Part shown: piece by piece, positions 12,759-56,490 of the stretch
How positions within the stretch are numbered: the first letter of the stretch is position 1
Layout of the letters: every line of letters starts with the position of its first letter
Translations under genes and position numbers: made by a program
The notes under the pieces: generated by a model
Told to the model about the DNA's origin: nothing
What the model saw: the letters and a program-made list of their open reading frames with translations, nothing else
Databases searched by the model: none
Origin: Amphiscolops sp. MND2022
Taxonomy: Eukaryota
Length of the DNA stretch: 60,000 nt
Reading direction: 5' to 3'
NCBI GenBank assembly: GCA_964187785.1
Contig: OZ076409.1
Coordinates: 15,936,001-15,996,000 of the forward strand

Positions 12759-14954
12759 CAGGGGCTGGGAAACTATGCTACAGCGTAAAACAGCACAAAA
12801 CGGCATAAGCGAGACAAAACAGCATAAAACCAGTCCAAAAGCATGCTGAACTCTGATTGGCAAGCATAATGAACTCTGAAATTAGCAAAACTGCAACATT
12901 TTTTCTCAGATTTCTGTAAAACAACCGTGAATAACAGTTGTCTCGCTCACTGAATAACTTGATAACACGATTAAAAATGACGAATAACATAACGTTACAT
13001 GAGAAACCGCCGGAACAATTCGTTTCGTAACCGAATAATTTTTGCACTACCACAAATTTAGCGTTCATAATAAAATTTTAAAACATTTTTCAGGTATTAT
13101 GCCTTCTTTTCATTCTCGACTCCAACAATTTCCTGACTTCTACACTGAGCGGGGACTTTTTATCTGCCTTTATTGTTGCCATTCCGTGGATTTTGAAAAA
13201 GTTTCCACAATTAAAAACCACATTAATTCTTCAAAACACAAATTGCGCAAGAAGACAAAGCTCAGACGACCTGCTATTCCCGTAAATATCTCGACAAGCA
13301 TTAGCGCGTCACAAAAACGATCCGAATTTGTAAAGGATTATGTCGCTATGTTTCTAAAATCAAATATTCCTCTAGAAAAAAGTAATTCCATGACTGAATT
13401 TATGAGAAAACACTGCAGCGAAGGCGGTGCAATTACTGATAGCAATAATCTCAGGCGTGTTTACGTTCCTCTAGTCGCCGAAGGCCTAAGAAAGAGTATA
13501 ATTTTCAATATAACGGCTGCGTTTGAGAACCATCAAATTTTTGCGCTGAGTATTGATGAGACCACTGATGATCGAGAACGTCATGTATTGAATGTAATTC
13601 TTAAATTTGCTGACACAACTAACAACAACATTCTATTCGACACGATCTTCCTAAATTCAGCAGTGACTGCGCAAGTCTTGGGACAAACTGCTAATGCCAT
13701 CATTCAAATATTCAACCTGGGTGATCAACGTATGTTTTTTCTAACGGACAATACCAGTTATTGTTACAAAGCATATCGGGAATGTTTATTGCCTCTGTAC
13801 CCTAAGATGCACTGGATAGGGTGTTGGCCTCATATTGTGGATCTGTGTTGCAACACTTGGCAACCAACTTTCAAGTACTCTCGTGTACTTGGCCTTTTGA
13901 AGAACTTTTTCCGAAAAAAGGTCTCTGCAGGTCGAAAACAACGCTGGATCATTCATCAAAAACTGAATGCAGTTCAAAAGCCAAAGCTTCCTCCTACGCC
14001 TTGTTTTAAAAGATGGACAACTTGGATAAAGGCATGTATGTATCATGCTGAAGTAATCGATCTCTACAGCAGTTTTCTTGAGAATGAATCCAGCATAACT
14101 GAGAGTGGAACATTGAAGGAGTTGAAGTACATTTTCAATGACGTTGAAGAGTTCATCAAACTAAAGGTTCAGTTGGTTTTTATTTCGGAGCATGGTAAAC
14201 AAATGATGGATACAGTTGAATTCTTTGAATTGAGGAACAATCCGATTGCACATCAGGTATACAACACCATTTTTCGATTTCGACAGGAACTAGACAATGG
14301 GAAAACGAGTGTTGCGTTTCGACACAAAAGGGACGCCCTTCTAAATACGTTTAGCAACGCTGGAATTGCACAATCGATTGCACTTTCTTCGCCGGCTTTC
14401 AAGAGGCCTAAAAAACTTGAAACTCCTCTGAAGAAACAAGAGGAAATCATTCAGTTGTTCAAAGCATTTCGTATTTTTGATCCCCGTCAAAAACCAAGCA
14501 TGAGTAAAAGCTTAAAAAACCACAGCGTATTGCCCGATTTTGATATCCTTAATGATGCCCTTTAGATGAGTGGGGTGCATATTGGAACGATGTGGCCATT
14601 GAAAGTGATGATTTGAATATTGTGTCCTTTTGGAAGCAAAAAACTGATGAATATCTTCTTTTAAGTAACGTTGCACTCAAAGTTTTAGGGATTCCAGCTT
14701 CAACTGCAGACGTGGAAAGGAGTTTCAGTTTGTTAAAGACGTTAGAAACGCCTCAAAGGCTGCAAATGAGCGACTCTCATGTTCGTGATCACATATATTG
14801 TTATTTCAATTCGAAATATATTTGTATCGATTGAGTTCGTATACCGAATATATGTGTATCACATAATTGTTTTCGAAAAAGCATAAAAAGGCATAATTTA
14901 GAATAACAAGCAGCATAATTTCTGAAAATGAGCAGCATAAAATCCCAGCCCCTG
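12759..14954 (+). mobile_element. hAT DNA transposon, full length (2196 bp)
   Basis: TIR CAGGGGCTGGGA at both ends, perfect 8-bp TSD GTTCCAAC (12751-12758 and 14955-14962), and subterminal (C)AGCATAA(AA) repeats on both sides. Confidence 0.95.
13099..14834 (+). pseudogene. hAT transposase (CGGBP1-like N-terminal Zn finger), frameshifted before the dimerisation domain
   Basis: CLYC...HINSSKH Zn finger, SIDETTD, LTDN and CWPH motifs. The C-terminal IPASTADVERSFS motif lies in another frame after a break at ~14562. Confidence 0.88.
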
Positions 14955-31191: not shown

Positions 31192-31299
31192 TAGGGGCGC
31201 GAATAACGTCTAAAAATATTTCGGGAATAACGTCTAAAATTCAATGTATTAAGATTGGGAATGAGCATGACTGAGGCTTTAGACGTTATTCCAGCTCCC
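31192..31299. mobile_element. Small MITE (MULE-like)
   Basis: Inverted GGAATAACGTCTAAA ends with an internal tandem copy, flanked by the direct repeat ACATTTTAAAC (31181-31191 and 31300-31310). Confidence 0.55.
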
Positions 31300-31517
31300 A
31301 CATTTTAAACACAAGGCATGAAAATTCCAACATTTTACGGAATTAACCATTTTTTTCCAATTCTGCGAATGCCCGCTAAAAATGCAAATAAAAAATGCAT
31401 TATACGTTTCTATTTTTGAACAAAGACTTCAACAATTATTGACCTTGGGCAATGTTAATTTCTGTCAACCTGTCACAATTTAGTGAAAAATAACAATACT
31501 AAGGTAGATATACATAC

Positions 31518-31593
31518 CTGGGTGACGGAATTCCATTTGGAAGGTAGGTAATTGAAGCTAAACTGCTTTCTCCACAAGAAATTACTGCACTGT
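31518..31593 (-). CDS. AKAP1: AKAP1-like exon 2
   Basis: 76-bp exon with a polypyrimidine TAG acceptor and GTATGT donor. It supplies the phase 1 to phase 2 link needed between exons 1 and 3 (DSAVISCGESS...PSP). Confidence 0.78.
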
Positions 31594-33514
31594 CTAAATA
31601 AGGAAAAAACGTGCAATTAAAACACGGGCAAAGACGACGCATTTTCTAGCTGGAAAGTTTAAAGACGATTTTTTTTCAACGCAAGCTCACAGCAAAATTG
31701 ACGATGACGTGAGCTTTCTTTTCAGAGCGCATTGCATCAAGCTGTACCAGTTCATATTTACAAATAGCGTAACTTCATATGACAGTTGCAAAAAGGCTGA
31801 AAAATGTCACGAAATCTTTTAAGGGCGCAAGTTACTCGCAAACACGATGCACCAACATTTAAACTACTCCCGTGCATATTGATCACGCTGCAGTTGAATC
31901 CGCATTGCTAGGATTGACCGAATAAAATAGTACGAATAAGGAGAAACGCGAATTAGCCGGATGACATTTGTGTGGTCGTCACGAAATGGGGTTTCAGATA
32001 CAAACGAATTAAACGATCATAATTATCCGGATACAAGTTAACCGGAGTTGACTGTATTACAAGTTGAATTTTCAACTCCAAAAAAAAACATGAAAAAGGA
32101 ATTCATAATCACGGAAATTCATCAAAAAGTGCATGGAATGCACCATGAGGGCATTAACCTTCTTGAACTATGCATTTTTAATCAGTTCAGATGGCGTACA
32201 CATTAAGAATATTCGATTTTACACAAGTGACCTTTACGCTTTCAATTAAAAATAGGAGGAAAGTATCTTTCGAGGTGGTAGAGGCAGTGGATGAAATGCA
32301 AAAGGAAGCTTTTCAAAGTAATCGAATTCTTTTCCCATGAAATTCGAAAACCAAATGGAATGAAAATGAAAAAAGTCATTGCCAAAAACTTCAAGTGACA
32401 TTTTTACATATATTTTATACTACAAATTACGAAGTTATTATTATATAATTCATGAATCAAATGAAAAAAAATGGCAAGACAATTCGAAAAGACTTTGCCC
32501 GGGAAAACAATCAATTAGACTTGACAGACCATTGCCAAAAGTTGTAAAAAAAAGAAAACTCTGAAACGATGTATTGCAGAAGAGCTACAAAATGATAGAA
32601 AATACCAAAAGCTCTGTTAATGCATTTACATGACATGTAAATTATTATTCTTACATAAACTCCTATAAACTCACTAAACCTTAGCAAGACTACCGAATTA
32701 AAAGAACAATGGCAATGGGAACAACTGTTTATGCCACTGCCTACAGGAATAATGACCAGGACTCGCTCAAATCTGTTGATTAAATTCGATCGGAAACATT
32801 GTAAGCATGTGTTTCCCATAATTCTTCACAGATTTGCATATAAAAGTTTGTTTTGTCCACTGAATATTTAAGCCATAAAAACCATTTCCCAGAACTCATA
32901 AAAAGCTGTTTGAGTACCGATTCCAATTATATATGGTGGAAATGACTCATAAACGTGGTAGCGTTTTGAACACATTTGTCTAGATCCGATAGGAAAGTGT
33001 GAAGTTTGGCATTTCAATATTTCAAAGAAAGGTTCAGGATTTTCCCGAGACTTAGCTACAACCACTTTTATACGTCAATAGCCCCTGGTCACTTGAACTA
33101 TTTAATTTGCTTTCATGAATAGTTGCTTTCTTTGTTGTCACATTGTCGCAAATCCGCGAAGCTTTTTTAGTACCACTCGTCGCTTTTAATACTTAGAACT
33201 TCATCCCATTCAGTTTATTTTGAGTTCTGTTATCAAAATAACAGATGTCAGACCTAACATATAATTGGAAATGATGCGAAAAAAAAACAAAAATACTCAG
33301 GGACGAGTTATTAATAACTTTGATAGAAAGTAATTATGTAGCGACAGCTTGAAGTACGTTTTGCATCGTGGATTATGCATAATGAAATACAGAATGGAAT
33401 GTGACATTCCCCCCCCCCCCCCCCCCCCAAAGGCTTCACTCACTAAAAGCGCCCCGAGGGACCAAAAAATTTTTACTTTGAGTCATTGCATTTTCACAAA
33501 GTGATTTTTCAGGC

Positions 33515-33590
33515 CTTGCTGCTGAAAAGGGTTGTCACGAGTGCAACAAATCTAGTCCACTATTAATTGGACAGCAAGTTGAACCTCTCA
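33515..33590 (+). repeat. 76-bp dispersed repeat, identical inverted copy at 43778-43853
   Basis: Exact reverse-complement identity over 76 bp, read by eye. Confidence 0.9.
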
Positions 33591-33716
33591 AACGGGGACT
33601 GTTCAATTCGTCGAACATTCAATTCGTCGAACACGTATTACTTTAGCGAGCAATATATGACGTAATGGAATGAATTGATTTCGGCCAATCAAATTCGAGC
33701 ATTCAAAATTACGATA

Positions 33717-34141
33717 ACGTAGTCAGCTATGTCCACATACTCCTAGTGCCCTAAATGCAGGAGCGAAGCGGAGCGACGTGCCATATGGCCATGCCTCAAT
33801 GTTGCTACTTGGCGAACGGAGCGAAGCGACCGAGCCATATAACAAATATGCTAACCTCTTCAAATTATAACCTGAAAATAATCGCTGCTATGGAAATCTT
33901 TCGACGCTTTAAATACCTGATTTTTTCAACGCTTTGAATATTCTGCAATTTGAAAAGTGCATGAACTTTAGCGCCGATTATGCAATGTTTAATCCAAATA
34001 TTAGATATACATGTAGTATCAATATTTGTTGTATGATTCGGCCTTCAGAACCAGTCGCTGGACTAGTGATGGCACGTTGCTCCGGTTCGCTTCGCTTCTT
34101 TATTTAGGGCACTAGGGGTGAATGGATATAGATGACTACGT
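33717..34141. mobile_element. Foldback/MITE-like element with ~70-bp imperfect inverted arms containing GAGCGAAGCG motifs
   Basis: Arms at 33717-33784 and 34069-34141 (CCTAGTGCCCTAAAT / ATTTAGGGCACTAGG). A related copy lies at 59916-60000 on the minus strand. Confidence 0.65.
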
Positions 34142-34541
34142 TTCGATGTCGTGCAATACACAATTTCAATTGACTGATTTTAATTTTCAGCCAATCAGAA
34201 AACTTGATACATTCAGTCATTGAGTCATTCAGAAGGCACTGATCAAAAGTCGCTCGTGGAATCTTTCTGCCTCGATTATTAGAGCATCGATTGTCCTAAC
34301 CTTGATTACAAGATTTTAAAGACGTACATGTAGTTGAAACAAAATTCCGGAGCAACAATTATATCATATCAATCAACTCGTTGCAAAACGTAGAATTTTC
34401 AAAAAATTTTCTCGGCCGAGCAAAATGCACTCAAAACTAGCCAAGCTCGGCATGAACTCATTGATCTATCTCGTCAACTTCACGACAATTATGATTTTGA
34501 ATTATTAACGAATAGCTTCGATAAAGTCAATTACAACTAAC

Positions 34542-36429
34542 CAGCTTCACTGTAGTTAGAAGGACTGATAACAGAAATGACCGAAGGGTCATTCAAATAG
34601 ATCTGATCAAGACTGCTTCCATTGAGATGCTGAATTTGTTTACTACAAACATCAACATTCGTGTTCTTCATCGCTGCGTCCTTCTTCTCGACTCCACACT
34701 TCTTGTCTCCTTTGGCACGAAGGGCGTTTCCGGTCGGGTCATTCTCCTGGTTTGACCTGTTGCCGGTTGGTGATTTAGAGGTAGGTGTTGGCTTCAAGTT
34801 ATTACTGTCTGGAGTTGAACTTTTGTTCATCTGGTTGTTGTTGAGGTTAGCTTCGTTGCAATCGACCGAGAGAAGAGAGTTTTTGTAAGAGGTTGTGTTT
34901 CGATTGTTAGACTCGGCGTTGTTAGTGGGTCTGTTGTTAGCTTTCTGACTGCTGCTGTGTTGACTGTTTTTAGAACTGCTGTTATTTTTTGAGGGTGACG
35001 AGTTCACATTGTGGCTTTTTGAGTTAGGGGAATGTCGCGTTTTGTCATTAGCACTTACTGAGTTTGGAGACTGTTTATTGCATGAGTCTGCTGTTACTGT
35101 AGACTTGTACGCGCTTTCCTTGTTATTGGTAGCGTAGTAATGTGAAGTTGAAAAGTGTTGCTGTTTGTTTTTCGCGGGCATTTTCCTGCCGTCTGAAGTC
35201 GCCATACTGTGGTGTCCCTGTGAAGAGCCTGTGTTGTTTTGAGGTTTCTGATAAGTGTTGCCTGCTCCCTTGTTCAGCTTCTTATTAGGGTTACTTTTCG
35301 ACGAATCTGCAGCGTGGGCGCTTCTGTTGTGGTTACTGCTTTTGTTATCTGAGGAGGGTGAGGTTTTGAACTGATTTGTCGTCGCCGTAGAGGTACTAAA
35401 TACGTAGGGAGTGTCCGTCTGAGGATCGCTACTCAAAACTGGGTCTGAGTGATCCTTGAGTGACTCTTCCACAATTGACGCCCACGAAATGTAGCCGTTG
35501 GTCAAGTCGTCCGTCTTGTCCCCGGGACTGTCATGTTTGGAAATACAATCAGCAGCTGAAATCTGGGAATTGCCCTTGGCCTGTTTGTCGGTAGACGTTT
35601 TGCGAGGGTTGCTCACAACCTCGTCACACATCTTGCCACCGTTGCTTGTCTCTTGTTCCTTTATAGTTTTTATAGCTGTAACGTCCAAGGATTGCTGATC
35701 CTGCGAGCCGTTAATTGCTGCGTGCGTTTTATTTTGAGCAATGAATGAAAATGAAGGAGTGTTCAACTCACAGACGATGTCAGAGGAGGCAATAGGAGTA
35801 TCACTCTCCACGGTACATTGACCAGGAGTAATAGTAGCAGTAGAATTAGTACTGAATTGTGACTGAGTAATACTAGTTTGAACAGCGATGAGCTTTTCCT
35901 CTGCAGTGTTGGCGGTGGCGGCTTTCAACTCCGGTTCACAAGCTGTTGCCTGCTTTGTCCCTGTGCTGCAACTTTTATTGTTGCTCGTCGTCTTTTGCAG
36001 TGAAGCCGACGATGATAATGGGAGATAGGAACAACAAACTGTTTCGACTTCTTTAACAACCACTAAATCCTCTTCTATTGAGTTTTGCTCACAACCACGG
36101 TCGTAAATTGCGCCGTCGTGTTTCCGTTTGGTTGACTCTTTGCTAACAACTGTTGTCAAATGGTCAGTGATAATATCAGGCGTTGGGTTGGGCAATTTAT
36201 TACTATTTTTGTTGTTTTTGTCACTTTTATCCGAGCTACAATTTGAGATTGATTTATCGGCAGAGGAGATATTCTGTGTTTCACTTTGGGTCTCTTGTTT
36301 TATAGAAGTTAGAAATCTGTTTGCAGAGGTTTGTTTGCGTTTTTGCCCAGTGATGTACTGGTAATAACAATAATAAACAGCGGCTAATGTTGATATTCCA
36401 CAGAATGCAAGGATGGAGTGAAATTTCAT
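34542..36429 (-). CDS. AKAP1: AKAP1-like exon 1 (N-terminal membrane anchor and long S/N/T-rich disordered region)
   Basis: MKFHSILAFCGISTLAAVYYCYYQY...QKRK resembles a mitochondrial outer-membrane anchor. The 630-aa ORF ends at a G|GTTAGT donor. The joined CDS is 2985 nt (994 aa plus stop). Confidence 0.85.
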
Positions 36430-39400
36430 AATACGTTCATCAAATCACAGATGGGTCGGGTCGGGTCGTTCCAAGGAGGCTTTGGGTGTTCGAATGGATA
36501 GCGAAGGGTGGTTTGAGCCCAAGGCTATTCAATACATTCGAAAGGAAAGGGTAAACAATTCAAAAACAAACAATTCAATCAAGAAACAACAAGGATAATA
36601 CAAAAGTAATAACTTATTAATCTCAACAAGTTGGTAGGTCGCCTGTAGTTCAATTGCCAATTTCTTCTCGTTTGATGCTTGTGTCAAGTTTTACTTTGAC
36701 ACCACGTAAAATTGAAATTACCAACAAAAGTGTGAACAAAATATCAGTTTGTGGATTTAAGCTGATGTCGTAATCTTGTAACTCTTAATCATGGCAGAGC
36801 ATTAATTAGCTCATTAATTACGTAACAAGTTCGGCTTTCTTGTGTTCGAAACAACTGTTGAAAAAGTCGAAACTCGAAAGGCGTCCGCTGACAGATTTGA
36901 AGTCGCTTTCAAGGCGGTAGATTCGCTTTTGGGACAACTGAAGGTAGATCAACTTTATCCACAGATGTCGTTTGGAGAAACAAACAAGATGATTGCTCAA
37001 ACCAAACGGCTTTGTTGGGCGAATAACTTATCGCGAAGGATGACGAACAAAGGAGGGTGCTAATCTAACGATAAAACGACAGGAGAGTGTTTACAAATTT
37101 GTGATAGTAATCAATAACTCCCGCGCGTAATTTGTAATAGTAAACTTGTCCAAGTAGTAGAATTAAATAATGAGCGCCAACTGAAGATGAAGGCTGTTTG
37201 TTGTAGTAAAATTCTTACAACTGATACGAGAGGCACGATTCGGGTGATGATTCTAACCACTCGACTCTTAAGAGAACTTTTAATGACGACGCGACTACGC
37301 ACTGTACAGAACAGACACTACGAACTCATACAAGATCTGAAACAAAAACCACAAATGCACATTAATCACTGACAGTCCGGAGTTGCCGACCGGCGCGTTT
37401 ACTTTCACGCTCGTCAACCGGATTCGAGGTCTGGATTTATTGAGGTTTGAATAAATAAATTATTCATGAACAAATACGTACAAACCGCTGATGAGCACTC
37501 TTGAACTCGACTTTATGTAACTAACTAACTCAAATCAAGTTTGTAAATAATATTTTCAAGTTATAACTCGTTTAGAGTACAAATTATGCAATCTACGGTC
37601 ATTTGAAAAAAAACAACGATAAGTACGCGGTTCACGACTAGATAAATTACTCAATCGGATCAAAAACGTTCAATTATTTAATTGCTCTATTACACGGTCG
37701 ATAAACGAATGAGAATAATTAACTTCGACTTGAATAGTCAGAATTGTGTAATCACACAAAAAACAAGTTGAGAAAAGCTTGCAGATAGTGTAAAAATTCA
37801 AACGAACAACTTGTTACAAAGCAGCACATAAAGCCTTTGCACTAAGAAGCAATTTTCTCAACAATCTCGCTTCTAGCAGCGCAGCGAGGAAATAAATTGA
37901 AAAATCTACACCAAGGTGAAAGAATCTGAAGGAAATCTGAAGACACGGCGAGAATTTGATTCGGGAAAATTATTGCAAAATTTTAGAGGTACTACGCTTC
38001 GAAGGAACGCAGTAAATTGAATGAGGCAGTCGAATTCACAACGGTTTCGCTGTCTCGGGACGATAAAGCAACAAATTTACGGCCTCGAAAGACTGCAGGT
38101 TCTGCAAGTCACTGTGGCGGAAATGTTTGCTCAGCCAGTCCAGCCGTAGTTCGTCTGATTCAGAATTAGACGACCGTGGTTAACGAGACGAGACGGTGGG
38201 TAACGAAGTCTTACAAACAGGCATCAAGTATCCTATCTTGACGGTAGCTTGAGTAATATCAAATCTATCGAATTAAAAACATTATCATCCTTCATACATG
38301 TACCTGTATATACGACACTCAACTCAGCAGCCTCTGTGATTACTATAGAGAGGAAGAGTAGATTCTGGTGAATTTCGCTTTAAATACCCCACCGAACACA
38401 GATAATGATAAATTTGCATGCTTTTCCCATTCGACGACATTCGCCCGATGTGTCATGCATAATACTATGGCATTCTATGGTAAGGGCATTGAATGGAAAG
38501 ATGTTCTAATGCTATAAATTCGACGTTTTCCATTAAAAATGGACAATTTCGTGGCAGGCGCGAGACAGGCAGTTAGGATAGCTACTTGATCTATTTAGGA
38601 TTTTGTAGAGCGAGCAGAGGTGAGGGAGAGAATGCCCCGAGGAATGAATTTGGTTGGTGATTAGATGAACGAACCTCGTCTTACTCCTACTTTTCTTCCA
38701 CTACAACCCCCCTAGTAACGATATCTACCCACGCATGCAACTTGTCTGATTCTTGCATTTTGTGCCTGCTGTGTACCAGACAAAATAGCTGCTAAGTCCA
38801 GCCGACTACAAATTTTGTCACAAGCAAGAGAGCATTAGAAGACAAGAGACGGTAGTGACATTTATGTCAAAAAGATTGCAATTGAAACGCCACCAATGAT
38901 TTTCAGACTGAACAAAGAAACTCCTATTCATCCTATCTGGTTCTCTCGGCTGCCCCTGCATTTCTGAATCACATTAACGAGAGGAGAGGGGAAATGATTT
39001 AGACTCCACCGCAGAACAATCAGACCATATTCCCCCATGACAATACAAAGCGTTACCCTTCCCACGCGTGTCTAACTTAATTTCCCCTGTCTAACTCCGA
39101 TCCAAAGTATAAAATGATTTCCAATTATTCCTCAGTCGTCTTCCGCCATTGTGGAAAAATTTTTTAATGTTTGACCACATGTACGTTCAATTTATTATTA
39201 TTTGCGGTGCTTTTCAGCAAATATTTCACAGTCGTCAATTTCTTGGAGTGACATTTCAACCGAAAACATTGCTAAAGACCCGAAACATTTCAAGACAACC
39301 GCGAACTATTTGGCATCTTAAAAACGCAAAACCAAGAGGCTACAGAGACACTTAGAAAAAGGTTCAATTAGACAGTTAACTATTTTTGAATGCAAAGCGA

Positions 39401-45306: not shown

Positions 45307-45326
45307 ATGACTATGCCAGCGTCGTA
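45307..45326 (+). CDS. Calmodulin-like EF-hand protein, putative exon 1
   Basis: ATG ACT ATG CCA GCG TCG TA|GTAAGT. The phase 2 donor matches the acceptor at 54124. The start codon is uncertain. Confidence 0.55.
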
Positions 45327-45352: not shown

Positions 45353-46409
45353 TGTTGGCGCCAGAGATTGAGAAACCAACTTGAACATATTAGCTGGAAA
45401 TCTTGAGTTACAAAACTTTGTAAAACACTCGAAACTCATAACCATAATTCACTAACCTGTGCTGTTGTGAATATTTGAAGTCAAATGATTAATTTGGTAA
45501 TGGCGCTTAATGTTTGTACCGAAGTTCATTGTACTTTGACTCTATTCGAACGAGAGCGGTGGCGTGATTTGAGTCAAATGTTATCTATCCTACCTATCGG
45601 TCAAATTGCCGTTCATATTGCAGTTTCATTGATAGATTTACCTCTTTATGGAAAATTTTGGAAGGAATTTCCAAATTAGAGGTGTGAGAGGTCCGAAAAA
45701 CGTGATGGAAAAAGTGATCTTATGTAATTTTGTTATTTGAATATCCTGTGATTTTAAAGGTTATCAACTGTACATCCGCTGAGTAGAGTATAAATTTGAC
45801 CAATTTTGATACCATATTCAGAACGCTAATTAAAATATTCTTGAAACTTAAATGTCTTTGACAGCTGTTGAGTAGCTACCCCGGTTCCGGTTTAGACAGG
45901 TTGTGACTGGGAGGGTAGCATTGCACTACTCAACGATCGAAAAAATAAACGATCAGCTGTTTTAGGAGTCCAAATCAATCAGAAAAGTACTCTTGAAATA
46001 GCTTCATTAGGCGTAGTAGGTCTAAGATCTAGGAAAGCGTTCTATTATCGCTCATCGTAGTAGCGAGATTAAAAGCTCATCGTAAGAGCTATTCAATTGA
46101 AACGACAACCCTCTTTGGAGGCTTGGGTGGAAACAATCCGTTGAGGACGATCAGTTGCTGTGGTTGAGCGTACGACCTCCGGACAACAAGAGGTGAAGCA
46201 GATTTCCAGTCAAAAGAGGGATTGGGATCGAAGTGTTGCTTAGCCTGAAGAGTCTGGTGTTGAGGAGCACGAAGCCGCTAGCAGCTGAGAACTCATTGAA
46301 CAGATACAGTCCTTTAGAAAGTTTGTTCCTGCTTTTGGCCGAAGAAGTGGGAAGGATCAGGGACCGGCAGAAAGCTCAATTCCGCTGTAAGATTTGAGCG
46401 GCCGTTACA
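45353..46409 (+). repeat. 5' LTR (1057 bp)
   Basis: TGTTGGCG...CCGTTACA; matches 52881-53936 apart from one A in a homopolymer. Confidence 0.97.
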
Positions 46410-46428
46410 TTTGGTCCGCCGACCCGGA
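46410..46428 (+). promoter_or_regulatory. Primer-binding site, probably tRNA-Tyr
   Basis: TTTGGTCCGCCGACCCGGA directly after the LTR; it resembles the tRNA-Tyr-type PBS TGGTCCTTCGAGCCGGA of Bel/Pao elements. Confidence 0.75.
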
Positions 46429-46470
46429 CACTATTTGATTCGGAAATTGGATTGGAAATCGAGAAAGAAG

Positions 46471-49400
46471 ATGGCTTCGAACGTAATACCGGAGCTCGAT
46501 ATAACATGGTTCAAGGACGACAAAAGGTTGAAGGACCTGAAGAAGTCAGGTGATCTTGCCAAATGGAAAGCTGGCGTTGATGCCCTAGATAATAGCTTCA
46601 AAAACTTGAATGTGATTGTCTCAACAGATGAATTCAGCAAGAAAACTGACTGGACTCCAGATACCAAACTGGTCGTCTTGGGGAAATTCTACAGTGAATT
46701 CTCAACTGAAAAGCAGAAGTTCATGGACTTGGTGACCTCGATCACATCAATGTTGAAAACAAAGGCACTTGAAGAGCTTTTAGCTCATCAAAAACGAATT
46801 CTTTTCGGATTGGACAAAGCAGTGGAGCTATGGACGACAAACAACGCTGCCCTCAAATGGATTGTCAAGAAATCAGAGCTCCTCATAACCAAAGCATCTA
46901 TTGTGGAATATGGGAAGTTGGAAGACAAACAACGAGACATTCTTCAATCCCAAGCGGAGTTGAAACGAGAGATAAATGCTTTGATCGGACAAAAGGACAG
47001 AGTGTCAAAGATACGTCAACTCCTTCAACGGTTTACTCATAGACTAGAGGAACATAGAAAGCTTCAACAGCAGAAGCGGCAACTCATCAAACCTCTTTTG
47101 CTCACTTTACAAATCGAGGAAGCTGATGAGCGTGCGCAGGAGAAAGATCTACTTGGCTGGCTGAGCTACCTGAACGAACGCGAGGAGCAAAATGCCAGAG
47201 ATAAACAAAGTCAAATGGTTCATCAAAATTTCGACTTACCGGTGGCATCGAGGGAAGGCGAAGAACGCGTCCAAAATGTGGAGACAACAATGATACTGTC
47301 AGACAATGAAAATGAAGACGCTGAGCGCGTTGCCGGGCAAGGAAATGCTGGAGCCATTGGAGGAACTCCAGCAGCGGACGTTCCCACGGAGGAACCTAAC
47401 CCTAATGTAGGGGCAGCTGAAGTCAGCGTTGTATCCCCTCAAAAGGCATTCCCGATCACAGAAGAGCCAAAGGATATCATGGGCAGCGCTAGAAAACAAT
47501 TGGGATCAATTCCTTCGTCTCGATCGTCTCGGAGACGTGTGGAACTTGAAGCACAAATCTTCGAAGAACAAACAGAAGCTGAGATCAGAAAGAAGCAGCA
47601 GGAGATTGAGTTGAAACGGAAGCAACGAGAGATGGAATTGGCAATAGCAAAGGAGGAACTAGAATTGGAAGAGATGACCCGCAAGAAACAGCTTCATCTG
47701 AAAATGAAGAAGTTGGAAATAATGGAGCGAGCATCATCGAGATCTAGCATTTGCAGCATGGATCATTCTGAGACTGAGAAAGCCGCGACTACAAAAGATT
47801 GGTTGGAGTCGTCGAGGAACCTTTTCAATCACTCGAACGAGGACCAAAGACAACCGAACCTATATGTGAAGAGTGAAGAACAAGGCACATCATACGACTT
47901 CAATGACGACCAAGAGTATGTTTCAAAGGACCCATCGTTGCCCGGAAAACAAACAGACGTCAAAAGGAAAACGATTAAGTTCAACCCTGAGAGGATGTTT
48001 GTACCTCAGACAATCTCAACGCCCGCTGCGAGCAACAGCCCATTAAAACAATGGCAACGTAATCAACCGTTGGCAACAACATCATTCGGAGCTCTTCCAG
48101 CAGTAATGCCACCAATGAAACTACCGAAACTGGTTTTGGACAAGTTCGCTGGAGATCCTCTCGAGTGGCCTGAGTGGTCTGGGCAGTTTCTAGCAACTGT
48201 GGATCAAGCTGGAGTACCGGACAGTGTCAAGATGAACTACTTGAAAACTCTTGTAACGGGAAGAGCGAAATCATCAATAGACGGCATGGGCTACTCTGGT
48301 GGCATGTATCAAGTGGCTTGGCAAACACTTGAGCAAGATTTCGGTCGACCAGAACTTGTTGTCAATGCACAACTGAAGAGGATCCACTCTTACGGATTCA
48401 TCAAATCTCACGATTCAGTGGACATCATAAAGTATTCGCAAGTGGTTTCTGGATGTGTCAATGTCCTCACTCAGTATGGGTATGAAAGTGACATTGCTTC
48501 GGAGTCAGTGCTTAACAGTGCAGTAAGGAAACTACCAATCGAGCTCAAAAATAAATGGCTCTCTCACCTGCAACGATTCGACCCGACATACAAGAGCTTG
48601 AGGGTGTTCAGCGCCTGGTTGAAAAACATTGCTCAGGTACAAGAGAACATCCGCTTACAGTTCGGAAATGCAGGTGACAAGACGAAATCAACAACAAACA
48701 AAGACAAACCGAAGACAACCAGTTTTGCTGCTTCGACGGACTCCTCCACCAAAGGCAAACCCTCGTGTCCATTGAAAGACGGGGAACACAAGTTGTGGCA
48801 ATGTGAATTGTTCAAAAATATGAAACTAGCTGAACGATACGAAACGGTGAAGAAATACAACTTGTGCTTTTCTTGTCTCAGTTCCGGTCATCGCATTGGA
48901 CAATGCAAAAGCAACAGACTTTGTGGCAAGAATGGGTGCGGTAAACACCACAATCGCCTGTTGCACAGTGAAGAGAAACCAGATAGCAGTAAAATGGAAT
49001 CGAAAGGAGCGGATGGTGAGCAACCGAATCCAGTAGCCATCGCGAACTCATGCAGTGGGAGTCTGCAGATTGTGGCTTTGAGATTGTCACATGGAAACAA
49101 ATCGTGTGACACTTTGGCTATTTGTGACACGGGTTCTACGCTATCCTTCGTTGACGCAACACTGAAGAAAGAACTTCAAGCACAAGGTACTGGCTTGACT
49201 CTCAACATTGCAGGGATCAATGGCACGAAACAAATGCAAAGCGAGAAAGTGAAATTGGAAATCACAACTCCTACAGCTCGAGAAACTGTTTTGTTTCATG
49301 TGCATCCAAGCATGTTTCTGGGGAACAAGTCTTACGATTATCACTCTATCAAACAGAAATACAAACATCTAGATGTCCTACCAAATGCAGTGTTCGATTT

Positions 49401-52400
49401 GAGCAAAGTCAAGGTGGTTCTTGGGCAAGATAACTACCATTTGCTCTATCCAGTGGAATACAAGAAGGGACACAAAAATGAACCATGGGCGGTCAGAAAT
49501 AAACTGGGATGGACGCTCAGTGGCCCGCTTCCGAAACATGAAGTGGCCAATGTTGCATCAGCTACGAGTCATCTGGCATCAGAAGATAGTGAACTGAGCG
49601 TACAGCTAAAGTCCTGGTTCAGTATGGAATCATACGCGACGAGGGTGAACGTCAGCGGACGGTCAAAGGACGATAAAAGAGCTTTGGCGCAGTTGGAACA
49701 AACAACTAAATTGGTCGATGGTAGATATGAAGTCGGCCTACCATGGGCAGAAGATAACCCGAAGATCGAAAACAACTACTTCTCAGCGCATTCACAATTT
49801 TGCTCTTTGGAAAGACGCTTGGAAAAGGATCTTTCATTGAAAGCTAGATATCGAGACACAATTAAAGTAGATCTGGAGAATGAATATGTCAGGAAACTGG
49901 ATGAAGAAGAACTTGGAGAAACGAAGGATGAGACTCAGTGGTACGTGCCTCACCATCCCGTGATAAACCCTCACAAACCAGAGAAAGTCCGAAGGGTTTG
50001 CAATGCTGCAGCGAAATTTCGAGGAACTTCTCTGAACGATATGCTTCTCACGGGACCTGACCTCCTTCAAAACTTGGTGGGAATCATCTTCAGGTTCCGG
50101 GAGCATCCAATTGCCCTTACAGCTGACATAGAAGCGATGTTCTTGCAAGTTAAAGTGCCACCGCAAGACTGCAAGGTGTTACGTTTCTTATGGAGGAATA
50201 ACCCGAGTGATCCGATCTCCGTGTATGAATACACCCGGCATATTTTTGGAGCAAAGAGTAGCCCAACTTGTGCTAATTTTGCGCTGCAGAGAAATGCGAA
50301 GGACAACGAAAAGGACCACCCCATGGCGGCAAAAATCATCCAAAGGAACTTCTACATGGACGACTTTGCAAAATCAGTAGAGACTGAAGAAGAAGCACGT
50401 TTTGTGTACCAAGACGTGAGAGAGACATTGAGGCTCGGAGGTTTTAACTTGTTGAAATGGATCTGCAACAGTGAAGCTGTATGTAATTCGATACCTGAAA
50501 AAGATCGATCAGACGCAGTCAATAAGACCTTTGAGGCAGAGCCGCATACCTCTTCGCTTTTGGGACTTCAATGGAAAGTAGAAGCAGACGAACTTGAAGT
50601 TTGCCGTGGAGCTGACAAAGAAGTGCCAGTGAAAATCACTCAGAGAGCAGTACTCTCTTTCGTAGCCTCTGTCTTCGACCCACTTGGACTATTTGCACCA
50701 TTCACAATGAGAATGAGGATGTTGCTGAAGACGATCTGGGCGAAGACAGGTCAACAATGGGATCAAGAAATTGACATTGATGATCAGACAGTTTTCCTAA
50801 CATGGGCTAACGAGTTGAATCAATTGCCAAGTTCTCCACTGAGACGCAGATACTTCATGAGCCAGTTTGATAAAGTGGACTTGCACATCTTTTCAGACGC
50901 CTCTTTGGAATCCATGTGCATTGTTGCGTACATAAGGGCTCTTACACCAAGCGGAACAGAAGTTTCATTCGTGACGGGAAAGTGCCGAATAGCCCCAATG
51001 AAACAACAAACTATACCCAAGCTGGAGCTGCAAGCAGCATTGTACTCGGTGAGACTTAGGCAGCTGATAGAGAAGGAACACGACATCAAAATGGATTCAG
51101 TGACCCATTGGACGGATTCAATGACAGTGCTGAGGTGGCTTCATGCAGCACATAAGAAACAACAGGTGTTCGTCGCTAACAGAGTCGGGGAAATACTTGA
51201 TCAATCAACTGTAGACGAGTGGCGACATGTGAAAGGCTCCATGAACCCTGCGGATATTGGAACTCGAGGTGTCACTCTTGAGCAGTTGAGAGAAAGTGAG
51301 TGGCTACACGGGCCGGCCTGGTTGCAAGATGAACCGGAGAACTGGCCAGAGCAGCAGTTAGTCGAACACGAGGACGAACAAACATGGACTATAGCTTCCA
51401 GAGAGAGTATTCTTGATTGGACTAGATTCAGCCAATTCAAGCGATTACTCAATATGCTTGTCTACTGTCGAAGAATCAAAAACAAAAGAAGAGGACCCTT
51501 GATGCCCGATGAGCTGAATTCAGCAGAATTGACGATCCTGCAACTCTCACAGCGGGAGAGCTACCCTGAGCTGTATGAAAAGCTCATCAAAAGTAGTGGA
51601 AAGCCTGCCAAGAATGACTTGGCTAAATTGTGTCCATTTCTAGACAAGCAGGGCACAATTAGACTGAAAGGACGGCTGAACAAGTCAATGCTTCCTGATG
51701 AGACGAAGCATCCAATTCTTCTTTCAGCTAAACACCCTGCGATTGTTCTTCTCGTGAGACAAGCTCACGTGGACAATCATCATGAAGGAACTGAGCATGT
51801 CAGAAACATACTCCAGCAACAATACTGGATAACTGGACTCAGAAACGCTTTGAGACGCATCAAGTACAGCTGTGTACAATGTCGGAAAGCTGCTTCACAA
51901 CCTTTTCAACCTCACATGGCAGACTTGCCTAAGGAGCGAGTGCAGCAGAACGTGTACCCTTTCAGCAACACAGGGGTCGACTACTTTGGACCCTTCGAAG
52001 TGACATTCTTCAGGAAGACAGTCAAGTACTGGTGTTGTCTCTTCACTTGTCTAGTCACTAGAGCAGTTCACATCGAAGTCGTGAACGGCTTGGACACAGA
52101 CGCGTGCATGATGGCAATCACGCGATTCATGGCAAGGAGAGGCAAGCCATTGAAAATCATCAGTGACAATGGCACTAACTTTGTTGGAGCTGCACGGGAG
52201 TTCAAAGAATGCTTCAGTGAATGGAATCAAGATGCTATTTCGGAAAATCTTGCAAAGCAGCGCGTCGTTTGGCAATTCAATCCCCCCGGAGCGCCACATT
52301 TCGGTGGTATATGGGAGCGACTTGTGAGAAGTTGCAAAAAGTCTATGATTGCTATCTTGGGAAGTCGACGCTTGACTCTACCAGTACTCACCACAACGAT

Positions 52401-52899
52401 GTGTCTGGTTGAACAGACGCTAAATTCAAGGCCTTTGACGCCTGTCAGTGATGATCCAGAGGATCTAGAGGCATTAACGCCTAACCATTTTCTACTGGGC
52501 AGACCTGCAATTTCGGAGCCATTATTTCCGGATGCATCAAGATACGTGAACTGTCGAAAGCTCTACAAAGCGTCTCAAGCATATCATGAAATGATATGGA
52601 AAAGATGGGCTCGCGATTATCTGCCGCAATGGAACGTGCGACCTAAATGGGGGAGCAATGACGTGCGAGCCCTCCAAGTAGGTGATCTGGTGTGGGTCAT
52701 TGATGAGTCAGTGAAGCGGTGCAAAAATCAAATGGCTAGAGTTTTGGATGTCTTCCCGGGCAGTGATGGAGTGGTTCGATCAGCAAAGATACAGACTTCA
52801 AATGGGATATTCGTTCGACCCGCTGTGAAGCTGGCGCCACTATTGGACGATTGTTTTCAGAGAGAAAACAGGGCCGGCGATGTTGGCGCCAGAGATTGA
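46471..52899 (+). CDS. Bel/Pao Gag-Pol polyprotein (2142 aa from the first ATG)
   Basis: Coiled-coil N-terminus, DUF1759, three Zn knuckles, protease ICDTGS, RT YMDD, RNase H FSDAS and integrase HHCC/DYFGP/SDNG. The stop codon lies inside the 3' LTR. Confidence 0.97.
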   Translation: MASNVIPELDITWFKDDKRLKDLKKSGDLAKWKAGVDALDNSFKNLNVIVSTDEFSKKTDWTPDTKLVVLGKFYSEFSTEKQKFMDLVTSITSMLKTKALEELLAHQKRILFGLDKAVELWTTNNAALKWIVKKSELLITKASIVEYGKLEDKQRDILQSQAELKREINALIGQKDRVSKIRQLLQRFTHRLEEHRKLQQQKRQLIKPLLLTLQIEEADERAQEKDLLGWLSYLNEREEQNARDKQSQMVHQNFDLPVASREGEERVQNVETTMILSDNENEDAERVAGQGNAGAIGGTPAADVPTEEPNPNVGAAEVSVVSPQKAFPITEEPKDIMGSARKQLGSIPSSRSSRRRVELEAQIFEEQTEAEIRKKQQEIELKRKQREMELAIAKEELELEEMTRKKQLHLKMKKLEIMERASSRSSICSMDHSETEKAATTKDWLESSRNLFNHSNEDQRQPNLYVKSEEQGTSYDFNDDQEYVSKDPSLPGKQTDVKRKTIKFNPERMFVPQTISTPAASNSPLKQWQRNQPLATTSFGALPAVMPPMKLPKLVLDKFAGDPLEWPEWSGQFLATVDQAGVPDSVKMNYLKTLVTGRAKSSIDGMGYSGGMYQVAWQTLEQDFGRPELVVNAQLKRIHSYGFIKSHDSVDIIKYSQVVSGCVNVLTQYGYESDIASESVLNSAVRKLPIELKNKWLSHLQRFDPTYKSLRVFSAWLKNIAQVQENIRLQFGNAGDKTKSTTNKDKPKTTSFAASTDSSTKGKPSCPLKDGEHKLWQCELFKNMKLAERYETVKKYNLCFSCLSSGHRIGQCKSNRLCGKNGCGKHHNRLLHSEEKPDSSKMESKGADGEQPNPVAIANSCSGSLQIVALRLSHGNKSCDTLAICDTGSTLSFVDATLKKELQAQGTGLTLNIAGINGTKQMQSEKVKLEITTPTARETVLFHVHPSMFLGNKSYDYHSIKQKYKHLDVLPNAVFDLSKVKVVLGQDNYHLLYPVEYKKGHKNEPWAVRNKLGWTLSGPLPKHEVANVASATSHLASEDSELSVQLKSWFSMESYATRVNVSGRSKDDKRALAQLEQTTKLVDGRYEVGLPWAEDNPKIENNYFSAHSQFCSLERRLEKDLSLKARYRDTIKVDLENEYVRKLDEEELGETKDETQWYVPHHPVINPHKPEKVRRVCNAAAKFRGTSLNDMLLTGPDLLQNLVGIIFRFREHPIALTADIEAMFLQVKVPPQDCKVLRFLWRNNPSDPISVYEYTRHIFGAKSSPTCANFALQRNAKDNEKDHPMAAKIIQRNFYMDDFAKSVETEEEARFVYQDVRETLRLGGFNLLKWICNSEAVCNSIPEKDRSDAVNKTFEAEPHTSSLLGLQWKVEADELEVCRGADKEVPVKITQRAVLSFVASVFDPLGLFAPFTMRMRMLLKTIWAKTGQQWDQEIDIDDQTVFLTWANELNQLPSSPLRRRYFMSQFDKVDLHIFSDASLESMCIVAYIRALTPSGTEVSFVTGKCRIAPMKQQTIPKLELQAALYSVRLRQLIEKEHDIKMDSVTHWTDSMTVLRWLHAAHKKQQVFVANRVGEILDQSTVDEWRHVKGSMNPADIGTRGVTLEQLRESEWLHGPAWLQDEPENWPEQQLVEHEDEQTWTIASRESILDWTRFSQFKRLLNMLVYCRRIKNKRRGPLMPDELNSAELTILQLSQRESYPELYEKLIKSSGKPAKNDLAKLCPFLDKQGTIRLKGRLNKSMLPDETKHPILLSAKHPAIVLLVRQAHVDNHHEGTEHVRNILQQQYWITGLRNALRRIKYSCVQCRKAASQPFQPHMADLPKERVQQNVYPFSNTGVDYFGPFEVTFFRKTVKYWCCLFTCLVTRAVHIEVVNGLDTDACMMAITRFMARRGKPLKIISDNGTNFVGAAREFKECFSEWNQDAISENLAKQRVVWQFNPPGAPHFGGIWERLVRSCKKSMIAILGSRRLTLPVLTTTMCLVEQTLNSRPLTPVSDDPEDLEALTPNHFLLGRPAISEPLFPDASRYVNCRKLYKASQAYHEMIWKRWARDYLPQWNVRPKWGSNDVRALQVGDLVWVIDESVKRCKNQMARVLDVFPGSDGVVRSAKIQTSNGIFVRPAVKLAPLLDDCFQRENRAGDVGARD

Positions 52900-53936
52900 G
52901 AAACCAACTTGAACATATTAGCTGGAAATCTTGAGTTACAAAACTTTGTAAAACACTCGAAACTCATAACCATAATTCACTAACCTGTGCTGTTGTGAAT
53001 ATTTGAAGTCAAATGATTAATTTGGTAATGGCGCTTAATGTTTGTACCGAAGTTCATTGTACTTTGACTCTATTCGAACGAGAGCGGTGGCGTGATTTGA
53101 GTCAAATGTTATCTATCCTACCTATCGGTCAAATTGCCGTTCATATTGCAGTTTCATTGATAGATTTACCTCTTTATGGAAAATTTTGGAAGGAATTTCC
53201 AAATTAGAGGTGTGAGAGGTCCGAAAACGTGATGGAAAAAGTGATCTTATGTAATTTTGTTATTTGAATATCCTGTGATTTTAAAGGTTATCAACTGTAC
53301 ATCCGCTGAGTAGAGTATAAATTTGACCAATTTTGATACCATATTCAGAACGCTAATTAAAATATTCTTGAAACTTAAATGTCTTTGACAGCTGTTGAGT
53401 AGCTACCCCGGTTCCGGTTTAGACAGGTTGTGACTGGGAGGGTAGCATTGCACTACTCAACGATCGAAAAAATAAACGATCAGCTGTTTTAGGAGTCCAA
53501 ATCAATCAGAAAAGTACTCTTGAAATAGCTTCATTAGGCGTAGTAGGTCTAAGATCTAGGAAAGCGTTCTATTATCGCTCATCGTAGTAGCGAGATTAAA
53601 AGCTCATCGTAAGAGCTATTCAATTGAAACGACAACCCTCTTTGGAGGCTTGGGTGGAAACAATCCGTTGAGGACGATCAGTTGCTGTGGTTGAGCGTAC
53701 GACCTCCGGACAACAAGAGGTGAAGCAGATTTCCAGTCAAAAGAGGGATTGGGATCGAAGTGTTGCTTAGCCTGAAGAGTCTGGTGTTGAGGAGCACGAA
53801 GCCGCTAGCAGCTGAGAACTCATTGAACAGATACAGTCCTTTAGAAAGTTTGTTCCTGCTTTTGGCCGAAGAAGTGGGAAGGATCAGGGACCGGCAGAAA
53901 GCTCAATTCCGCTGTAAGATTTGAGCGGCCGTTACA
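52881..53936 (+). repeat. 3' LTR (1056 bp), preceded by PPT-like AGAGAAAACAGGGCCGGCGA
   Basis: Direct repeat of 45353-46409. Confidence 0.97.
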
Positions 53937-54124: not shown

Positions 54125-54188
54125 CTCCGTTGCCTACGACCATGCACAGCGATTGAAGATGAAGAGCTTGTTCGAAGAATTCGACCAG
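54125..54188 (+). CDS. Calmodulin-like EF-hand protein exon 2
   Basis: Polypyrimidine TAG acceptor; SVAYDHAQRLKMKSLFEEFDQ is the entering helix of EF-hand 1; CAG|GT donor. Confidence 0.8.
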
Positions 54189-55120
54189 GTTGCTTGTTTG
54201 TCCAACTTGAAAAAAACTTGAAATTTTGATCGCTTTTCATCAAAAAAGCGGTGTTAAAAAAGCATCTATTTTCACGCCTTCGTAGGCATTAATAGGCTTG
54301 AGAAACGTCATGAATCCAAACAGTCCGTAATTGCATCCGTAGATAAAAGCACTGTCAAACTGCGGTACATTACGTGCTTTGCTTTCAGAGTAACCGATCC
54401 TATGAAAGCGAGCATACACTGATCCAAATAACAAATTAACGCAGCCATTACGTAAAATTCATCTACATTTGGCATTGAGTCATCGTCCACAGTTTAAAAA
54501 ATGTCCATAATAGAAAAACTAGAATTTTTCTGTGAGGCAAATGTTCAGCAACAGGCGGCGCATGAATACTACTTTAGTGGAGAAAATGAGCCTTAGCAGT
54601 AACAGGCGGTCTTTTCACACAAGAAATCCTGAAAATTGGCTTTAAATTCAACCAATATACCATATATGGCATGATGGTTGCTAATTGAAGGATCAAACGA
54701 GGCGGAGGTTAACATGGAATGATGCGGACATTGCGTCACTCATAACTTTTTATACGGTTACTGACTTGAAATGACGTCACAACATCTATTGTAATTTATA
54801 ATTAGAGTTCAACATTTTTTTGTAGAAAAATGGCAACCACATTAACATGGTTCGAAAATATTCAATTGCATCGTCGTCAACAGTGATAAAAGCTGATAAT
54901 TCAAACCCTCCAGAAAAAGTTTCAACAGTGGCGGCGTTACAAATTCCTCCTCAAAAGCGCGTACGGAGAAGCAAGCCTTTACGCATCAGTGAATACAGCT
55001 CATTCACAAATGTTGCTCGCTAGAAAGCCAGGCCAAGTAAAATCGCTACTATTTCCGAGCCATTTGTTTTATCAAGAAGCATCGAATGAACTTGAAAGGC
55101 AACAAGCAACCGCGGAATAG

Positions 55121-55198
55121 GACAACAGCGGAAAACTAGATTGCCGAGAGTTCCAACTGCTGCTTCAAAAGTTCGGCATTTCTTTGCCATACGACCAG
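55121..55198 (+). CDS. Calmodulin-like EF-hand protein exon 3
   Basis: DNSGKLDCREFQLLLQKFGISLPYDQ completes the loop DQDNSGKLDCRE begun in exon 2; 78 bp, phase 0/0. Confidence 0.82.
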
Positions 55199-55711
55199 GA
55201 ATAGTTGAAAAATTTTCAGCTAAGCAAAAACTGAATGCACAAAATTACCGAAAAAAAGATATTCAGCGACGATGCAATCCTGACTTGCAACTTGTATGTT
55301 TTATGCAACAATTTTCGACGAATTCAAAACGCAGGAAAGCGTCATTTTCGGACAGAATGACAAGATTTTGAAGTCTTACCTCCTCCAATTCGCAGGAACA
55401 GTTGAGACAGATAATCTGTAACTGCTAATTTGTAACGGTAAACTTAAATATTTTTGATCGATTTGAAACAAATGAGTGACCTTGAAGAACGCACGTCGAA
55501 TTTGATATTGTTTTAAACGGATTTTACCGTACATATTCGATTTTTCACAACCCTGAAAAACCAGTGACAAAAAATTGAAGATTGGTCAGCTCGGTTTAAA
55601 TTTCAGAATTTTTGAATTTCTTGGCTCAGAGATACGATGGCAACTTCAAGTATTCAAAGTGCCCGTTTTTCATCTCAGTTTTTACAATTGTCATTCTTAC
55701 CTTAACTTGTG

Positions 55712-56109
55712 TTTTTAGACGGCTTTTCTTTCAAGGAAAAGTGTCCGAATTACAGTGATTAGTTTTTTGTCAATCTCACTCTGAATAGTCTTTTTGTGCA
55801 CGGTGCACATTTATGATAGGTACTTAGTATTTAATTTTGAACGCAACGAAAGCCGTCCCGCTTTCCAGTTTTTTTGGCACTATGAGATTTTCCCCTTTTG
55901 GCTTTGTGAAATTTTTTTTGAAAATTATTGTCTCCAAAGGGTTCCCCTCTCACGTTTTTTGGCACTACGAGACTTCCAAAATTCTTCTCTGTTTTCGACA
56001 CTTTTTAGTGAGTTTTTCATAACAAAACGTCCTGTGCATATTTCATAAACTTTGCGCTTTTTGAGCCTTAGGTATAGCGCCGACTTGGAGATGTTGCCGT
56101 CTTATTTTT
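55712..56109 (+). mobile_element. Non-autonomous Helentron/DINE-like element in EF-hand intron 3
   Basis: TTTTTAGACGGC stem-loop at the start and AGCGCCGACTT plus a hairpin at the end. It is a reverse-orientation relative of 12111-12590. Confidence 0.65.
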
Positions 56110-56145
56110 GAACCAATTGAACAGTATTCCTGCACATAAAAATAG

Positions 56146-56490
56146 TGTGTGAAATGCATCACGGAACAAACAGGCGGAAACGAGGAACTAACGTTTGAGG
56201 ACTTTCTAGACATCTACCCGAAAATCAAGCCGAAAAGTTTCGAAGAGGAGATCAAAAATGCGTTTGAATTGGTGGATTTGGACAGAAGCGGAAAACTGGG
56301 TCGAGACGAGATTAAGGCCATGATGATATCGGCAGGCGTGAAAGACATCACAGACGCCGAAGTAGAGTTTCTTATTTCTGAATACGACAAAGATGGCGAC
56401 GATGAATTGAACTTTGATGAGTTTAAGGCTTTCATGATGGATGACATATCAGATAACAGGATTTTCAAATCTGCAAACAACCAAATTTGA
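56146..56490 (+). CDS. Calmodulin-like EF-hand protein exon 4 (degenerate EF2, EF3, EF4, stop)
   Basis: Loops DLDRSGKLGRDE and DKDGDDELNFDE; TAG acceptor at 56143-56145. Confidence 0.9.
   Translation, partial: CVKCITEQTGGNEELTFEDFLDIYPKIKPKSFEEEIKNAFELVDLDRSGKLGRDEIKAMMISAGVKDITDAEVEFLISEYDKDGDDELNFDEFKAFMMDDISDNRIFKSANNQI

Follow-up and report, generated by a model that had tools for sequence, protein, structure and literature searches.

The EF-hand gene and its surroundings

The window, that is, the whole stretch of 60,000 nucleotides analysed here, belongs to contig C1 of a 1.07-Gb animal genome and contains a predicted calmodulin-like EF-hand gene of four exons and 168 codons, the frame of which is open throughout (Table 1). 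The EF-hands are paired with calmodulin spacing, and a centrin-like paralogue can be aligned with the four-exon model, a short gap falling in EF-hand 2. Relatives of exon 4 were found at 98%, 84% and 83% identity; a search of metagenome contigs for related loci returned one distant EF-hand locus, which was uninformative. As to lineage, a quick DNAH2 tree grouped the query with bilaterians in no starred clade, a TMEM267-like query returned one weak hit, and an acoel identity is a tentative guess. The Pao/BEL element placed within the inferred first intron has LTRs identical at 1056 of 1057 positions, a 5-bp target duplication and a single open frame of 2193 amino acids, with matches to the Peptidase_A17, RVT_1 and integrase domain profiles.

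Other features of the window were recorded as well. A second Pao-like element (636-10593) has about 3.5 kb of its gag region repeated in tandem internally, seen as duplicated open frames. A multi-exon KH-domain gene lies on the minus strand at 26499-36444 and adds later exons, which we take to be Tudor-like. A small element at 29770-30085 has 9-bp repeats and an 8-bp duplication.

Table 1. Features of the EF-hand locus and the hAT element of the window (window coordinates)
Feature	Position	Strand	Basis or remark
hAT element, exact 8-bp duplication; its 12-bp terminal repeats begin with CAGGG	12759..14954	+	Dimer_Tnp_hAT E 3.9e-14
Exon 1, probable (ATG to phase-2 GT donor)	45307..45326	+	inferred; weakest part of the gene model; donor at 15th percentile
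Pao/BEL LTR retrotransposon, full-length, very young	45353..53936	+	within inferred intron 1
Exon 2, final CAG, first helix of EF-hand 1	54125..54188	+	ordinary T-rich acceptor, 35th percentile
Intron 2, GT-AG, 932 nt, single copy	54189..55120	+	13 nt scored before the acceptor without T
Intron 2 arm, perfect 11-nt complement of 54188-54198 (donor)	55101..55111	+	9 nt before AG; p=0.002
Exon 3, final CAG	55121..55198	+	sequence and free-donor join scoring
Candidate left copy of 8-bp target duplication	55188..55195	+	weak alone
Left arm, exonic CAG and GA donor; putative left terminal inverted repeat	55196..55203	+	sequence comparison
Intron 3, predicted GA-AG, 947 nt, phase 0	55199..56145	+	sequence, join scoring, site percentiles
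Dispersed repeat inside intron 3, short of both splice ends	55702..56112	.	52 other matches, all to query 553-963
Right arm and putative right terminal inverted repeat, complement of 55196-55203 (8/8)	56125..56132	+	sequence comparison
A-rich tail, 13 nt, with TAG acceptor, without pyrimidine tract	56133..56145	+	lower score than any of the 416 GT-intron acceptors
Exon 4, degenerate EF-hand 2, EF-hands 3-4, stop	56146..56490	+	Pfam EF-hand_7 E 1.4e-15

The GA-AG junction of intron 3

Joins between exons 3 and 4, with no constraint on the donor, were scored by comparison with seven open frames of this genome that are calmodulin- or centrin-like. Among GT, GC, GA and GG donors at 55150-55259 combined with AG acceptors at 56040-56229, the join from GA at 55199 to AG at 56145 came first with a score of 69.0, compared with 55.4 for the best GC join. 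No GT donor in this range gives an open single join, and the initial annotation had noted stop codons for the GT at 55204 with every adjacent acceptor; two GC joins are open and both lose most of a helix. The GA at 55199-55200 following CAG, the GT at 55204-55205 and the AAAATAG ending at 56145 all lie where they had first been described, and the reading of intron 3 as a GA-AG intron is upheld, as a prediction, as the best single-intron model. The accompanying claim that this is the only join giving a calmodulin-like helix had overlooked a two-step, all-GT path through a 29-nt exon, which is weighed below.

Set among 416 GT donors with position +2 ignored, the GA donor falls at the 11th percentile and the nearby GT at 0.2%. 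The canonical U1 matches the GA donor at 6 of 11 positions and the nearby GT at 3, the GT donor of intron 2 behaving like the GA donor. The acceptor had also been singled out as A-rich, which is correct for its 13-nt tail but not specific, since AAAATAG likewise ends a GT intron of the KH-domain gene (31517-31037), the duplex of which is weak (-4.6 kcal/mol). The original argument against a GT-to-GA base-call error, drawn from an arm complementary to the donor, is supported by the recurrence of CAG followed by GA or GG donors with complementary arms in unrelated genes. On sequence evidence, 55199-56145 is very probably a real GA-AG intron, predicted as it is.

Complementary arms at the ends of introns 2 and 3

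The nucleotides 56125-56132 are, as first reported, the exact reverse complement of 55196-55203. Compared with 440 other acceptors, the duplex of intron 3 has p=0.036, and the reciprocal comparison gives p=0.054, values that are modest alone; the duplex becomes convincing because intron 2 (p=0.002) and all six GG introns found elsewhere share the feature. In whole-intron ensembles, the donor of intron 2, which also follows CAG, is paired with a probability of 0.96-1.0 over positions -1 to +8; the corresponding value for the arm of intron 3 is about 0.15 and its stem is absent from the minimum-energy fold. Apart from intron 3, pairing reached 0.83-1.0 in four of the introns folded and 0.04 and 0.3 in two. 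Among the seven introns folded whole, the end stem was well formed in four and partly formed in one.

Traces of a target duplication were sought beside the arms. The candidate left copy next to intron 3 (55188-55195) matches 4 of the 8 positions directly after the right arm and 5 of the 8 nucleotides before the final TAG. Intron 2 has no such relic (0/8) and a 7-nt tail, despite having the strongest arm.

GG and GA donors in dynein heavy-chain genes

An intron census was carried out over 1.51 Mb around 18 dynein heavy-chain loci, with junctions derived from similarity to outside homologues, AG acceptors forced and non-GT donors penalised. From 454 junctions, 450 calls were obtained (four gave none), of which ten were dropped: nine judged doubtful by hand (six GT, two GC and one GA) and one duplicate or short. 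The 440 introns kept comprise 417 GT, 15 GC, 6 GG and 2 GA, GG and GA donors thus making up about 2% of the sampled introns. All eight GG/GA introns keep conserved dynein frames, one of them in the P-loop; four lie in a single locus, the downstream exons of which were not found within 100 kb. A count of GA-AG introns and their stems across the genome had been suggested at the outset; the dynein loci supply two GA introns alongside the six GG, and neither GA intron reaches p≤0.05 for its duplex.

The class shares several features with intron 3. An exonic CAG precedes the donor in 8/8 GG/GA introns against 118/417 GT introns, and in intron 3 too; A at +3, also present in intron 3, is found in 7/8 against 163/424 GT. 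Taking intron 3 and the dynein introns together, the donors read GAATAG, GGATG, GAATG and GGCTG. A duplex between the donor and the 3' end with p≤0.05 was obtained for all six GG introns, neither GA intron (0.09 and 0.15), 3 of the 15 GC introns and both introns of the window, compared with 23 of 417 GT introns, each scored against 150 sampled acceptors. The latter figure is at chance level, and no general stem excess was detected in the 417 ordinary GT introns of the census. The pairing of each donor with its own partner within the six GG introns was the best of 720 permutations; consequently, the GG arms are intron-specific.

The arm motif occurs 9-18 nt before AG in 6/6 GG, 1/2 GA, 1/15 GC and 13/409 GT introns, one of the two dynein GA introns being without an arm. 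Acceptors of the GG/GA introns are mostly weak, between the 1st and 15th percentiles, with the arm-less GA intron at the 49th; some of the GT calls removed by hand had T-poor acceptors, which somewhat flatters the contrast in T content. Position and phase are common to a GT intron of a paralogue in four of the eight arm-bearing dynein introns, a proportion that gives p=0.01 against a flat 12% background and p=0.14 when stratified by conserved AG.

Two further observations come from the same loci. At dynein locus C, two GC introns (C11 1,730,247 and 1,689,179) have the same GCACGCAT start and strong 3' duplexes (p=0.007 and 0.002) that sit further from AG; the GCACGCAT-start GC introns possibly represent a second element family. 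At locus F (G000 C7 near 65,116,600, minus strand), the best free-donor call at a conserved dynein junction is CT-AG, one base off a good GT, and no downstream exons turned up in the stretch examined; this call may reflect an error, a mutation or a true CT donor.

hAT elements and the geometry of the intron ends

Five of the six GG donors read CAG-GGATG (the hyphen marking the exon-intron boundary). A scan of 1.75 Mb found an intact element with a CAG-GGATG end and an exact 8-bp duplication. This element belongs to a young hAT-type family, which gave 91 matches, and 17 full copies among the 30 loci examined; 14 of these copies have exact 8-bp duplications, 16 have duplications of at least 7/8, and none is evidently exonic. 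Repeat pairs starting with YAG or YAA and flanked by 8-bp duplications numbered 30 rows, some redundant or AT-rich, against 1 in the shifted control. Ten pairs have G at +1, eight as GG and two as GA, which mirrors the introns. Maize Ac/Ds, in the part of the source available, has C/TAGGGATGAAA and TTTCATCCCTA as its ends and makes 8-bp duplications (PMC3260210).

The window itself contains a hAT element (Table 1), with transposase remnants split over two frames; it exemplifies the proposed source superfamily and is not the parent of intron 3. No intact element with the exact end of intron 3 (CAGGAATA) and a duplication was found in 1.75 Mb. Genome searches with the ends of intron 3, of intron 2 and of one GG intron returned no other copies, nor did the examined loci contain any. 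The intron ends being single copy, no young parent of intron 3 is apparent, and since a family similar from end to end is absent, these introns are not an active introner family but at most an old relic.

The scores of the GG arms and of the duplications both peak at a tail of 11 nt from arm to AG, the distance that restores the frame. The eight tails measure 16, 11, 18, 11, 14, 9, 13 and 13 nt, that of intron 3 being 13 and not 11; one arm-bearing GC intron has a tail of 11. At the class level, the duplication relic amounts to 25/64 positions (p=0.009), or 26/56 with one short tail omitted (p=0.0009); intron 3 alone has 4-5/8. Arm matches reach 55/64, with the best register chosen and a GT background of 4.5/8. 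The better preservation of the arms relative to the duplications hints at selection, although the comparison is biased by the choice of register. One GA and one GC intron retain an arm that matches a presumed ancestral GG, which suggests a relic at +2. The stronger arm in the upstream intron, the predominance of GG over GA and the match of the arms to hAT ends are all absent from the initial annotation.

Splicing machinery

Among 23 U1 matches, none above the family cut-off pairs with GA or GG at +2. One candidate for a donor-matched U1 variant, a 36-bit degenerate copy, was set aside as it looks like a pseudogene. The U2 and U6 boxes are canonical in the copies read (three and two, respectively). 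With U1, U2 and U6 canonical, no fitting U1 variant and the partial U1 match of the GA donor given above, removal of intron 3 is presumably of the U2 type. No match to U11, U12 or U6atac was found among the 41-45 candidates scored for each, a weak negative without a positive control, and the minor-intron supplementary lists contain no DNAH or dynein entries, which says nothing either way. A scan for branch motifs was likewise uninformative.

Three U1 loci (L169, L175 and L176) have an A in place of T at position 6 of the 5' end, which makes that end complementary to GTTAGT, the commonest GT donor of the census (37/417); other U1 genes pair with AAG or CAA exon ends. On sequence, co-adaptation of U1 and donors is possible. 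The U2 snRNA genes form a tandem array (G000 C4 81,044,275-81,083,745) with at least 46 matches of equal score.

Proposed origin of the GG/GA introns

The reading that we moderately favour from the sequence comparisons is that intron 3 belongs to a small class with GG or GA donors, about one in fifty sampled introns, derived from old hAT insertions. The ends of hAT elements start with (C/T)AG-G, and insertion of such an element into an exon would have created an 8-bp duplication. Cleavage by the spliceosome would then fall behind the three leading bases of the element itself, and a cut three bases into a hAT end forces a GG or GA donor. The acceptor would be a host AG located 11 nt past the right terminal repeat, a distance made up of the 8-bp duplication and NAG, so that the exact frame is restored, and the complement seen in intron 3 would be this right terminal repeat. 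Interiors and duplications would since have decayed, the tail of intron 3 now measuring 13 nt. Removal would rely on the ordinary U2 spliceosome, presumably aided by the exonic CAG and the A at +3, and the arm was perhaps kept because it holds a weak donor beside an acceptor that has no pyrimidine tract. That the stem is actually needed for splicing is a tentative suggestion, and we rather doubt it.

A second account accepts the GA-AG intron as real but regards the stems as a splicing aid that evolved in ordinary old introns, and not as transposon relics. Pairing of the donor with the 3' end would let +2 drift and the tract decay, CAG-GNATG then being simply the sequence that still matches U1, U5 and U6 best. 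The perfect 11-bp arm of intron 2 is unlike catalogued hAT ends and comes without a duplication relic, the arms match better than the duplications (55 against 25 of 64 positions), half of the eight positions are common to paralogues, the GT intron with the strongest stem of 417 lies at a position common to a GG intron, and the end stem forms in five of the seven introns folded whole, in one of them partly. This account nevertheless offers no explanation for sequence identical to that of a hAT end which is active in this genome, for a peak at tail 11, for the duplication relic or for the excess of GG over GA; moreover, two arms did not track the change at +2, and ordinary GT introns have no stem excess. 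It is consequently considered rather unlikely, though the most credible of the alternatives to the hAT origin.

It is improbable that intron 3 is an unspliced product of a sequencing error, an inactivated allele or a pseudogene. A retrotransposon with nearly identical LTRs in the inferred first intron and an acceptor scoring below all 416 GT acceptors would fit a dead copy. Against this, the frame is intact over four exons, exon 4 has relatives at 83-98% identity, the arm matches the non-canonical A, and elsewhere eight GG/GA introns leave conserved dynein frames intact, in one case within the P-loop.

The all-GT path mentioned above would use a hidden 29-nt exon at 55565-55593, with GT 55204 joined to AG 55564 and GT 55594 to AG 56173. 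It is the best of 1107 two-step paths and scores 81.6, compared with 69.0 for the GA join, exceeding all 25 nulls with swapped introns (maximum 78.6). Its selection from about a thousand paths must be set against this score, as must the quality of its four sites, none of which ranks above the 1st percentile of 416 GT introns (0.2, 0.5, 0.2 and 1.0%). The two segments cannot be told apart by coding-likeness (0.3 vs -0.8), and the 8-nt arm, the donor made of CAG followed by GA with A at +3, and the genome-wide class would all be left unexplained, so that the path appears very improbable.

Equally hard to credit is that these are degenerate U12-type introns, with the arm serving as the U12 branch motif for a minor spliceosome that has diverged: the pyrimidine tract is missing, a TCCT/TCCC-like motif 10-18 nt before AG resembles TCCTTAAC (consensus in PMC3488318) and some positions are common to distant paralogues, but the donors are without the ATCCTT signature (5' RTATCCTT), the weak searches described above returned no U11, U12 or U6atac, the arms track each intron's own donor, and one arm has no A before the acceptor.

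Comparison with known systems

The hAT origin can be placed beside other non-canonical introns. The origin and the recognition of GA/GG donors in animals have been stated to be unclear (PMC5714493). The GA/GG introns of the copepod Eurytemora affinis (PMC5714493) and the GA-AG introns of Oikopleura dioica, in the available part of the source (PMC7072748), share with those described here the obligatory exonic AG, the A at +3 and a canonical U1. In the same two sources they are constitutive introns of conserved genes; the genes are conserved here too, the introns being predicted. Frequencies differ, with about 2% here against 10-12% in Eurytemora affinis, and so does the balance of donors, GG:GA being 6:2 here whereas GA:GG is 31:5 in that species (PMC5714493). 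Eurytemora acceptors are near-ordinary (PMC5714493), in contrast to those found here, which are weak and carry the donor complement. Neither a stem nor a transposon source is mentioned in the portions available of the Eurytemora and Oikopleura texts (PMC5714493; PMC7072748).

Introners, as described in the accessible sections of two reports (PMC9860276; PMC12130899), have terminal repeats, a target duplication and one splice site carried with one recruited, as proposed here. According to the same sections, GA donors occur in some introner families, and hAT introners are known in plants, fungi and the tunicate Styela clava (PMC9860276, PMC12130899). The donor proposed here lies three bases inside the terminal repeat, whereas the hAT introners listed in the portion available, covering 32 of 63 hAT places, are for the most part classed as GT/GC or left unclassified, and a GG category is absent there (PMC12130899). 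Introners, in these partial sources, form families; the introns described here are single copy and have no similar interiors.

Maize Ds1 has reportedly been found, in a study of that element, to act as an intron. Within the available excerpt on Ac/Ds, the end is near-identical to the one considered here and the 8-bp duplication is common to both (PMC3260210). The present case would differ from Ac/Ds, as covered by that excerpt, in that the cut is inferred to fall inside the terminal repeat, at a site other than GT, and in introns apparently fixed in essential genes of one animal.

Fritillaria borealis is likewise an animal with terminal repeats, duplications and conserved U2-type snRNAs, as far as the available text of the two reports extends (PMC11282704, PMC13326754). 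Its transposon-derived introns are, in that text, mainly AG-AC/AG-AT (PMC11282704, PMC13326754); those described here form a minority class and retain both the G at +1 and the terminal AG. The non-conventional introns of Euglena also pair CAG with CTG near their ends, the CTG lying some way short of the 3' boundary, as here, in the part of the report at hand (PMC12501133). In that same part, the CAG is intronic, the ends are not G-AG and the need for pairing has been demonstrated genetically, whereas here the CAG is exonic and the pairing is only predicted (PMC12501133). A literature search of partial coverage found no paper in which GG/GA donors are tied to a cut within hAT ends.

Significance

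Taken together, the comparisons allow a bolder and still speculative proposal, which at present we hold to be doubtful: a second, structure-guided intron class, in which domesticated hAT repeats would serve as intron-specific stems between the donor and the 3' end that replace GT and the pyrimidine tract, the stems being kept only while the donor is weak, and in which a cut three bases inside the hAT end would yield exact, frame-preserving introns.

The hAT origin offers a concrete proposed source for GA/GG donors, namely the (C/T)AG-G hAT end, together with a testable geometry of an 11-nt tail and an 8-bp duplication. If it is true, decayed single-copy introns of transposon origin could still be recognised once they have slipped beyond the reach of introner searches based on families, and, if the stems are needed, splicing assisted by end pairing would operate in an animal. 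Gene finders restricted to GT/GC would break about 1 in 50 introns in such genes.
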